A model generated the notes under the pieces. That model did no database searches, was not told the origin of the DNA, and saw only the letters and a list, made by a program, of their open reading frames with translations. Positions 3,162-13,792 of a stretch of DNA of 64,000 bases are shown here, in pieces (positions within the stretch are counted from its first letter, which is position 1; each line of letters begins with the position of its first letter). Where the stretch lies: the NCBI GenBank assembly GCA_951406725.2, contig OX597821.1, forward strand, positions 44,702,001 to 44,766,000, written 5' to 3'. The stretch is from Octopus vulgaris (lineage: Eukaryota). The translations under genes and the position numbers were made by a program.

Positions 3162-4380
3162 CCCTTTTAAGATGGTTGTTGTAAATTTACACATGCAGTG
3201 TATATGCTTCAAATTGGTCAACGTAATTATAAGCTGTCTGACTTAGAACTTGTCACCGGTGCACCTGCTAACTGATAGGCTGGTTATTTGTTTCATGTAA
3301 ATATTTACAACCTAATAGGCTGGTCTTGCTACTCTGGCTCTGTCAACTTCATCTTCACATCCTGTTTAGCGAATTTACAGTTGTCATGCCAACTAAACTC
3401 CATCACCACACCAGTTGTTTTTTCCGGTTTGGACAATGACTCAGAGAGTGAATATTTTCCAAGTTCAGAATCAGATGATTCCAATAGTGATGATGATATT
3501 CCAGTGAATCAAAGATACAAGCGGGCAGCAGTGAATGACCCTGGACAACAGAATGTCATGTGACAAGCAAGAGACAATTTTGTCCAACAGCATGGTACTG
3601 GTATGCCTGGCATAAAGGCAAACCTTGAAGATGGAAGTTTGCCATTGGAAATCTTGCACGAGTTTTTGTCGGATGAAATATTCCGATATATAGCAAACGG
3701 AATGATTGACTATGCTGAAAACCATCCCCAGCATGGCGGTGGTTGGTTTCCAACTACAGGGGACAAAATCAAAGTTCTACTGATACTGATGGATATCATG
3801 AAGAAAGCAACACTAGTGTCATACTGGAATTGGGATCCAGCCATGTTCACACCTTTCTTTCTGGAAACGATGCCACATAATCGATTTTTGGTGCTTCTTC
3901 AAAATCTACATTTCAACTTAGGCAAGAACAAAGATGCCAGGCTGCACAAAATATGTCCTATCATTGACGAAGTGGCTGAAAATTTCAGAACGATGTGTTC
4001 CCATGCAGGATGTTTGTACGGATGAGAGTTTGTGGAAATTCAAGGGAAGGCTCTGATTCAAACAATGTAACCTGACCAAATGTACCAGCTTTGGAGTCGA
4101 GATTTATAAAATATGCCAGTCAGCTGGCAGAGCCGGTAGGTACATGTGGAATTATAAAATCTACACTGGTAAGGACAGATTGGATCAGCCAGCATCTACT
4201 CTAGTGATAACTGATGTTGTGTTGTCACTGAATGTAAACTTGTTTGACAAAGGCTACAATATTTATATAGACAACTGGTTTTCCAGTCTGGACCACTTCC
4301 TGCAGCTGCAGACGAGGAGGACTAATGCCTGTGGGACTGTGAGGGCACACAAGTAAAACATGCCGCCCAATCTTCACACC
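3162..4380 (+). mobile_element. piggyBac transposon remnant (PGBD4-like transposase pseudogene), 3' truncated
   Basis: Starts TTAA|CCCTT. Acidic N-terminus, then the motifs YW...F...MP.NRF..L..LHFN, RLHKI.PIID, DESLWKFKGRL, YMWNYKIYTGK, KGYNIYIDNWFSS and ACGTVR, broken by frameshifts and stops. Confidence 0.92.
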
Positions 4381-11545: not shown

Positions 11546-11567
11546 AATAAGCCTAGGAAAAAAAAAT

Positions 11568-12012
11568 GAAATCACATGATATGGGAATTCTGGCACCCAT
11601 GACAGATGATTCTCATCTGCTACTGTCTATGTGTGTGTCTTTATGCACCAAGCACCTATGAGGGAAGATCTCTCGAGGCTAATAACTCAGTATTCAGTGT
11701 TCTAATGAAGCAGCCATGTTAAGTTGGATAGAAACATTACCTTTAGATATTAATACTGCTTCCATCACTACAAATTAATTTTTAATAAACCTCTTGGCTA
11801 TTTGTTGCATCAGTGTCTGGAACGATACTGGTATTTTATATATCATGGCAGCAAAATTTGCCTGGCATGTGGTAACTGACACTTCACACTGATAAGGTTT
11901 AGTAGACTAAAATTACGTGACATGGGAATTCCGGCCCCTGTGGCAGATTATTCTCATCTGCTACTGTATTTGTTTTTATGCCCCAAGTGCCTATATGAGA
12001 CGATCTCTCAAG
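11568..12012 (+). mobile_element. Retrozyme-like 1.3-mer: 341-nt period with HHR at the junction
   Basis: Direct repeat 11568-11677 / 11909-12012; each copy begins with the HHR 3' half (GAAA-TCAC[A/G]TGA-TA-TGGGAA). Confidence 0.7.
11883..11928 (+). ncRNA. Degenerate type I hammerhead ribozyme
   Basis: TTCACA-CTGATAA-GGTT tagta GACT-AAAA-TTACGTGA-CA-TGGGAA. The upstream copy retains GAAA, TCAC.TGA and TA. Inferred ancestor: TTCCCA CTGATGA GGTC..GACC GAAA TCACGTGA TA TGGGAA. Confidence 0.7.
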
Positions 12013-12219
12013 ACAAAATCAAAATGGTCTGTCTTGATGAATTCGATAAATGAATGAAAATGCTAATAAAGAATTATCCAAAATTATGATTGCCTCCTTT
12101 TCTCAATATACAATATCTGTACACCACTTCAAACACTCTATACATATGTAACTACATGTGGATTGTTGGCCAATTTTTTTCCTCCGTCTTCCTTTTCTCT
12201 TGAACTTTCCTCTGTCTCC

Positions 12220-12256
12220 TGTTTCTGAAGAAGAGCTTTGCTTGAAATATTAAACA
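12220..12256 (+). ncRNA. Minimal hammerhead motif, canonical CUGAAGA core
   Basis: TGTTT-CTGAAGA-A-GAGC ttt GCTT-GAAA-TA-TT-AAACA; same layout as family M, with CG decayed to TA. Confidence 0.6.
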
Positions 12257-12291
12257 ACCTTTCTTTCCTTCCCAGATAGTCTTTTAGTACT

Positions 12292-12367
12292 TTTCGTTGC
12301 GTCTTGCAACCTTTTCAATAGTCTTCACTAGTCAAGACTATTGAAAAGGCTGCAAGACGCAACGAAA
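12292..12367. repeat. Near-perfect 34-bp hairpin
   Basis: tttcgttgcgtcttgcaaccttttcaatagtctt / aagactattgaaaaggctgcaagacgcaacgaaa, 8-nt loop, one mismatch. Confidence 0.95.
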
Positions 12368-12546
12368 TTTTAGGAAAATAAAAATAAGAAATAAGTGGAA
12401 ATTTTACTATTGAGTGTGTTAAATTATAAGGCACAAAAAGAAAATGACTCTCCCCAGACACAACAGAATATGCTTCAACACATGAACTCACATAAAGAAT
12501 CTTGCAAACCAAATCCCAAAACGAAATATATATATGTATGTATGTA

Positions 12547-13792
12547 CAGGGTGCATAAGATATTTGAGGACAGATTTATGTTTATAAAAAAAAACTTATG
12601 TAATAACAGATAATAACTTTATTTATCAAAAAATTCTATGAGGATAAAAATAAGCCTTCTTTTCTATAATGTTATTCAATAAGGCCACCTTCAGCTTCAA
12701 TATGAGATCTAAATCATCTACATGCTCGAATCAAGTGCTCCTGAGTCATTTTGGACCTTACACTGACTATGGCAGCTTTCAAAGAATCTTTGATGTTATG
12801 GGCATATTCATTGACCTCTCCCTCAACAATGCTCCACATGTAATAGTCCAATGTATTGAGATCTGGGGAATTAGAGGCCAAATGTTAGGGGTTGTGTGAT
12901 CATGAAAATTTTCAGCCATCCATTCTTGTGTTACCAGAGCCATGTGTGATAGTGTAGAGCCTTATTGAAACACATATGGCTTTCCATTCATTACACTGTC
13001 TATCCAGGGCTTAACAATTATTTCCAGGACCTCAATGTAGGCAGCAGAGTTAACTGGAAGGTCTTGTGGAAAGAAGTAAGGAGGCATCACATGTCCTTCA
13101 TTGCTGACAACTCCTAAAACCATGACAGTTGCAGGAAATTTTTTATGCATAACATATGGAACTTCAGAAGGTTGACACATAACCATCTGTCTGTTCTGTA
13201 AACTTTTTGAACTTGGTTGAAGTTTTTCTCGTTTGAGAAAAACCAAATTAAATCTTCTTCTGCTGGATTTTTACATTTGTTTAAGAGCCTTTTAGATCTG
13301 ATGTAGTGATTTTCTTTTGCTTTTTCTGACAAATTGACCTTTCCACATCATATAAACCTTATATCTGATGTTTTCGCGGACAACATTTCTAACTGTTCCT
13401 TCTGACATATGGAGATCTTTTGCAATGCACCTCATGGACCTTCTGAGATTGTAATCAAAAGTCTGTTAAACTTGTTGGATAAATTTAGGTGCTCTAATGA
13501 TTCTAGAATGTTTAGAATGCTTTTTATGCTTTGATACTGGTGATACTTTTCCTTCTTCAGTCTCTAGCTCCTTAAAAACTTTGTAGACGAAATATCTGGC
13601 AACTTAAAAATAGAGATATTTCTAAATTGCTATGCTCAGCCTTTATAACCACGATAACAGCATACCTCTTCATTTCTTGAGTAAGCTGAGGGTCTGCCAT
13701 TATTATTTTCTGAAACATAGATTAAACAGAGTTAGCAAAAAATACAGCAATGACCCAAAAAATGTATGGCTTCAAATACTTAATGCACCCTG
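12547..13792 (-). mobile_element. Tc1/mariner DD37D (maT) transposon, full length, inactive
   Basis: TIRs CAGGGTGCAT..GATATTTGA with TA flanks. Motifs WFFSNEKNF, VMVLGVVSNEG, YVFQ, WP..SPDLN.LDY; 37 residues between the second and third catalytic positions after frameshift correction. Confidence 0.92.

Follow-up and report, generated by a model that had tools for sequence, protein, structure and literature searches.

The window analysed here, a 64-kb stretch of Octopus vulgaris DNA taken as a whole, contains at positions 11568–12012 a direct repeat built around hammerhead ribozyme motifs. No open reading frame (ORF) of 90 or more amino acids overlaps these positions, and the ORF with reverse transcriptase (RT) and GIY-YIG domains that marks an autonomous Penelope-like element (PLE) is absent. 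One may ask what kind of element this is and how it was copied to its present place. We consider it about 80% probable that the stretch is a 5′-truncated, decayed 1.3-unit insertion of a protein-free hammerhead repeat, likely copied in trans by the RT and endonuclease of a PLE. By sequence definition, the family to which it belongs would be classed as a metazoan non-LTR retrozyme.

Structure of the Insertion

The two arms of the direct repeat, 11569–11677 and 11910–12012, start 341 nt apart, and their local alignment scores 95, as compared to a mean of 20.6 and a maximum of 29 in 200 shuffles; over an ungapped 64 nt the two passes differ by 17%. The 341-nt repeat was not reported by Tandem Repeats Finder run on the window. 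In total, the stretch amounts to 1.3 units of a dispersed 341-nt family. Its complete unit has a GC content of 38% and departs from the family column majority at 16.4% of positions (13.2% with CpG sites excluded). A preliminary description made from the sequence had the repeat start at the hammerhead GAAA and set the cleavage sites 341 nt apart, and both points were confirmed: the GAAA equivalents are found at 11568 and 11909 and the UH at 11580–11581 and 11921–11922, with cuts predicted after 11581 and 11922. Coordinates of individual features are given in Table 1.

Table 1. Features of the insertion at 11568–12012. Family positions are counted from +1, the first base after the cut site.
Feature	Positions	Strand
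Hammerhead 1, 3′ half: GAAA, stem III (palindrome broken at 11576), UA cut site	11568–11581	+
One whole 341-nt unit, from one cut site to the next	11582–11922	+
Equivalents, in the first unit, of the two family 3′ ends (about +161 = 11742; about +198 = 11779)	11730–11790	+
Hammerhead 2, full-length type I: stem I, core, stem II, GAAA box, stem III, UH, stem I′	11883–11928	+
Partial second pass: family positions 1 to about 96–101, with a 6-nt deletion inside	11923–12012	+

The insert is truncated on its 5′ side at about 11566–11568, which falls within stem II of the first hammerhead, and what precedes 11568 is A-rich flank only: the 5′ strand of stem I, the CUGAUGA box and stem II are all missing. 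At the other side, the second pass ends 60–100 nt before the usual family 3′ ends, just upstream of another high-copy repeat, so that the 3′ end of this copy, at about +100, coincides with neither of the two family modes. No inverted arm, microsatellite flank or remainder of the copy elsewhere in the 64-kb window was detected, and no target-site duplication was seen by eye at 11566 and 12013.

The Hammerhead of This Copy Is Predicted to Be Inactive

The unit had been described as bounded by two hammerheads. As can be seen from Table 1, the first is a 3′ half only; the second, while of full length, carries a mutated core, with G8A (11894), G12A (11909), U16.1C (11921) and a stem I mismatch at 11886 (standard hammerhead numbering). 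Thus, the intact G8, G12, U16.1 and full core at both sites that would qualify it as a type I hammerhead are lacking from this copy. It likewise lacks the two consecutive units with complete hammerheads by which Li et al. (bioRxiv 10.64898/2026.07.22.740005) call a retrozyme "active".

G8 is required for hammerhead activity (PMC11167929), and the three core changes at one site, together with the half-motif at the other, lead us to predict that both sites are dead even as a dimer. By analogy with the double hammerhead, each active site would consist of the core of one copy and the UH of the other (PMC4209133); here one such site would depend on the first core, which is absent, and the other on the core with G8A and G12A, so that release of a 341-nt monomer, as proposed in the preliminary description, is not expected from this copy.

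The claim that stem III derives from a palindrome holds for the family, whose stem III is TCACGTGA (10 nt including the flanking core A/U), but the palindrome is intact in neither of the passes here (TCACATGA and TTACGTGA). Similarly, the mutual complementation of mutations suggested for the two copies is true, at the level of sequence information alone, of G12, U16.1 and of the palindrome, and fails for G8, where there is no second copy. Rfam returned no matches at the gathering score in the 64-kb window, the four matches below threshold being chance snoRNA/lncRNA similarities with E values of 4.6–9.5. Since Rfam finds no hammerhead here, the motif is evident from the family alignment rather than from this copy.

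The 341-nt Family and Its Ribozyme

A search of the 2.8-Gb genome for relatives gave 1083 first-look candidates, 40 of which were scored; these yielded 53 matches that, self excluded, are 65–85% identical. Five genome searches together produced 96 loci and, once 13 duplicates were dropped, 83 distinct places, a non-random sample consisting of the top-scoring matches of the five queries. The copies are dispersed over at least 25 contigs and are about 9–25% divergent from the column majority. Apart from self, no search gave a match better than about 91%, and hence no young copy was encountered. In the family alignment the unit joins head to tail with itself, inserts with two junctions are present, and candidates number more than 1000. 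The proposed retrozyme-like multicopy unit with a hammerhead core and a 341-nt period is therefore upheld; the alternatives that would have spoken against it, a single-copy sequence or the absence of core and period from other copies, do not agree with the results of the genome search.

At family level, the unit is short, non-coding, repeated head to tail and low in GC, with one type I hammerhead per unit (CUGANGA, GAAA and UH elements and three helices, helix I being open). Helix II has 3 bp and a first position that is mostly unpaired (62 of 85 junctions). Across the 85 junctions, 78.3% of stem cells were paired, and double-sided changes in the stems numbered 60 as opposed to 32.8 in shuffles, with none of 500 shuffles reaching 60, though related sequences can beat this shuffle without any structure. 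The covarying changes come mostly from two subfamilies (stem II, 52 U-A and 19 G-C pairs; stem I, 29 U-A and 25 C-G pairs) and hence represent few events inherited many times. The whole core is retained at 38 of the 85 junctions, conservation being inflated by the way junctions were picked (a motif with at most nine mismatches, and five loci found through an exact-core pattern). A strict 34-letter intact-core pattern matched six genomic places, none of them inside a long or young array; its reversed control matched none. Minimum-energy folding of three intact junctions did not return the hammerhead fold (z from −0.1 to −1.1), and for a rod-like circular fold the z values were −0.8 for the window monomer and −1.9 for the monomer of another locus, L002, which speaks neither for nor against such a fold. 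The short palindromic helix III of the family would fit a dimeric fold (PMC4209133).

A sister family was also encountered (L132–L161, e.g., L139, L159 and L142, and L131:3902–4152, minus strand; 148 candidates, 40 scored). It is 60–80% identical to the 341-nt family over +25 to +205, has a type I hammerhead of its own with a longer stem II and different stems I and III, and includes mirrored copies.

Insertion Ends Resemble Those of Penelope-Like Elements

Outer 3′ ends, taken from local alignments of copies that are 9–25% diverged, cluster at two positions: 77 of 113 fall within +151–170 (36 ends) and +191–210 (41 ends), with medians of 161 and 198. When the analysis is restricted to the subset whose query was located upstream of the junction, +140–210 contains 26 of 36 ends (p = 5e-11 versus a uniform distribution). 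The 5′ ends of simple inserts are, in contrast, scattered over the unit. First-look candidates were about fivefold more numerous for +1–148 than for +200–339 (1155 versus 240). A genome search for arrays and circularly permuted insertions had been recommended; dispersed copies were indeed found, but rather than being freely permuted they vary in their 5′ ends only, the 3′ ends being confined to two positions.

Mirrored, tail-out insertions account for 30 of the 83 places. In 19 of them both ends lie in +100–215, and 17 of these pair a long end with a short one while none has two long ends (p = 3e-4, at a long/short threshold of 183 chosen after viewing the histogram); the remaining 11 could not be scored for end length. 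Microsatellite runs adjoin 27 of 88 tail flanks, compared to 356 of 4082 background windows, and 10 of 53 5′ flanks. The 3′ ends of the sister family are at the same two positions despite its different hammerhead, which suggests that +50 to +200 is the stretch that the enzyme reads.

Known traits of PLEs include partial tandems, a truncated copy in inverted orientation next to the element, a bias towards microsatellites and a "tail" of 30–40 bp that is often present at one end only (PMC8557442) and is bounded by two internal RT starts (PMC11167929). The family shows the same arrangement: fixed 3′ ends with an optional 30–40-bp tail, 5′ truncation and, at many places though not in this copy, an adjacent inverted 5′-truncated copy with the tail at one end only. 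By analogy with the element studied in PMC11167929, the equivalents at 11742 and 11779 may correspond to two reverse-transcription start sites, in which case the PLE tail would be the 37 nt that separate them. In the literature searched and in the main texts of two retrozyme papers, no PLE-type end pattern was reported for retrozymes.

Circle or Uncut Multimer as Template

Inserts range in length from 0.5 to 2.3 units. Since they cross one or two junctions, the template must have been either a circle or an uncut multimer, and we regard a re-ligated circular monomer and an uncut multimer as about equally probable. The greater-than-unit insert in the window is compatible with rolling reverse transcription, as the preliminary description had it, and an uncut linear multimer leaves the same footprint.

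The strongest competing explanation is that the inserts arose by rolling reverse transcription around a self-cleaved, re-ligated 341-nt circle and that the unit in the window is such a monomer, to which we assign a little less than an even chance. Junctions were crossed although the family ribozyme was intact, as more than a third of the cores (38 of 85) still are, and 5′ ends are not concentrated around the cut (4 of 53 lie within about 5 nt of it). Successive passes of one insert share the subfamily in 16 of 20 cases, as opposed to 60% between loci; haplotypes of confident pairs are continuous in 58 of 64 cases across the junction and in 13 of 15 across the tail region, and at L018 and L022 both passes carry the same rare haplotype, which at L018 is a mosaic. 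A homogeneous linear dimer or trimer, however, predicts equal concordance, and these subfamily tests do not separate circle from multimer. No array longer than 2.3 units was found in the 83 places or in 30 loci matching a 2.3-unit query, and circles are formed by mussel and axolotl retrozymes of similar size (PMC7229834).

Set against a single monomer circle is locus L009 (G000:C1:175941879-175945333), whose passes agree at only 2 of 13 diagnostic sites, the subfamily switching between +136 and +298, an interval that contains both tail ends. L009 is clearly a chimera, to be explained by a mixed template, by template switching or by conversion at a later time, and cannot come from one monomer circle; L003 and L015 are weaker cases of the same kind. 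Tandem passes also agree slightly less than inverted arms do (0.73 versus 0.82, the interval of the difference including 0), the single PLE examined in vitro used mainly uncut RNA as its substrate (PMC11167929), and the copy in the window is predicted to be unable to cut. Two sequencing runs guessed to be RNA gave short low-depth contigs of the stretch and no back-joint, an outcome that favours neither side.

Search for a PLE Partner

PLE machinery is present in the genome. Elements with RT and GIY-YIG are abundant (6136 candidates; 148 matches among the 150 scored), and a young family (L127:1245–3590 and L128–L130) has intact 781-aa RT and GIY-YIG ORFs at many places. The 781-aa ORF matches RT with an E value of 1e-6, just under the Pfam cut-off, and contains GIY-YIG and a CX4CX2C linker, of the type tied to Neptune elements (PMC8557442). 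A second young PLE family is also present. At L128, one hammerhead-like motif lies downstream, in an inverted arm.

When the unit was compared with 30 GIY-YIG loci, drawn from the 150 scored of 6136 candidates, and with 30 loci of the second PLE family, no homology was found except at one place. That place, L105/L131, was considered as an autonomous partner and rejected, the match there being to an insert of the sister family that lies next to a fragment of a PLE. Since the sampled loci yielded no homologous autonomous partner, it is the end structure by itself that ties the family to PLEs; the partner PLE may be extinct.

One could also suppose that the copies are merely 5′-truncated ends (pseudo-LTR, or pLTR, plus tail) of an autonomous PLE and do not form an independent family. 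Their end features are all PLE-like, hammerheads are located in pLTRs (PMC4209133) and vertebrate retrozymes are related to pLTRs (bioRxiv 10.64898/2026.07.22.740005). The unit, however, closes on itself head to tail, and PLE ORF fragments occur in only 2 of 83 loci, outside the pLTR position, with no shared ORF beside the unit. Among 53 simple inserts, adjacent sequence is common to one pair upstream and four pairs downstream, and what is shared resembles common interspersed repeats. For the sampled loci, the pLTR-end explanation is thus largely refuted, and we consider it improbable overall. The unit may nonetheless have arisen from a pLTR that lost internal sequence.

Age and Surroundings of the Insertion

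The 3′ boundary of the insertion is bridged by DNA contigs covering 11594–12080 with 3–6 differences (runs X2, X5 and X7; organism labels A, C and D), and the 5′ boundary by one DNA contig covering 11356–11761 with 22 substitutions (run X17; label E). Because these contigs bridge its boundaries, the insertion is old and, if the labels hold, predates the splits of the labelled organisms. Contig depth increases about 100-fold from about 12048, so a different high-copy repeat lies beside the element.

Although the insert is retained in several related organisms, we consider it very improbable that it arose by local duplication, that it is left over from a satellite, or that its ribozyme has been preserved at this site to serve the host. 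Copies with polarised ends are dispersed over 25 or more contigs, three invariant positions of the core have changed here, this copy has diverged from the majority as much as its siblings have, and its two passes are 17% apart over the ungapped 64 nt.

Other repeats were noted in the window. One or more very high-copy repeats, with contig depth 100- to 1000-fold up, occupy about 12030–12290, right after the 3′ end of the element, and a high-copy repeat of about 250 bp (7696 candidates, about 92% identity) follows at 12291–12550, opening with a 38-bp hairpin at 12292–12367. A broken DDE transposase (PF13843, DDE_Tnp_1_7) lies in two reading frames at 3564–4356, and a tandem repeat at 47616–47875 has 2.6 copies of a 96-nt period (sub-period about 50) with 79% matches. 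Pfam searches of 41 of the 84 window ORFs, those other than microsatellite frames, detected transposase pieces only.

Discussion

The family resembles metazoan non-LTR retrozymes as described in PMC7229834 in its non-coding unit (about 300–390 bp in those elements, with GC below 45%), in having one type I hammerhead per unit with a 6-bp helix I and a short palindromic helix III, in its head-to-tail repeats and in the presence of PLEs in the same genome. Unlike them, it consists of dispersed inserts of at most 2.3 units, all of them old, is known from DNA alone, and has the 3-bp helix II with a mostly unpaired first position. The words "tail", "inverted" and "truncat" do not occur in the main text of PMC7229834, and the end pattern is thus undescribed there.

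Li et al. argue that vertebrate retrozymes depend on PLEs, the conclusion reached here as well, and there, too, decayed monomers and dimers are many; 8 of 9 predicted dimers remained uncleaved in their assay. Their argument is drawn from co-occurrence and pLTR homology, whereas ours is drawn from insertion ends, and we found no homologous pLTR. The likeness to PLEs with an endonuclease (EN+), namely PAc of Anolis (PMC11167929) and Naiad, Chlamys and Neptune (PMC8557442), extends to two internal RT starts, a 30–40-bp tail at one end, 5′ truncation, partial tandems, an adjacent inverted copy and AT-rich or microsatellite targets. In contrast to these elements, the family has no ORF, its starts lie about 160 and 200 nt past the cut site in non-coding sequence, and its hammerhead is of the canonical rather than the minimal type. 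A precedent is provided by non-autonomous head-to-tail Chlamys elements, e.g., MRC1 (PMC8557442).

In the mechanism that we propose, source units would have been transcribed and their RNA cut by the hammerhead, probably acting as a pair. A PLE protein would bind at +50 to +200, nick AT-rich DNA and start cDNA at about +160 or +200; RT would then continue past the hammerhead junction, its template being a circle or an uncut multimer, and fall off at random, yielding inserts of varied length. The copy in the window would afterwards have lost its 3′ 60–100 nt, a later tail loss that we consider likely, and then decayed neutrally. Judged from its sequence, it is a dead copy of an extinct-looking family, predicted to be without present ribozyme function.

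More tentatively, and at odds somewhat lower than those given above to the circle, the ends may record a full retrozyme cycle, in which a self-cleaved 341-nt circle was rolled by a PLE RT-endonuclease that always starts at one of two internal sites, the strands of mirrored insertions being primed from different sites and thereby ending one long and one short. If true, this would connect the circle model of retrozymes with PLE internal-initiation TPRT on genomic evidence, and the RNA element that recruits the enzyme would be identified as +50 to +200, which the sister family retains. The movement of animal retrozymes has so far been deduced from co-occurrence and pLTR homology. The family described here adds evidence of a different kind, in that a protein-free unit shows the tail and the inversions of PLEs, and it singles out a defined RNA stretch of 150 nt as a candidate template for the PLE protein.
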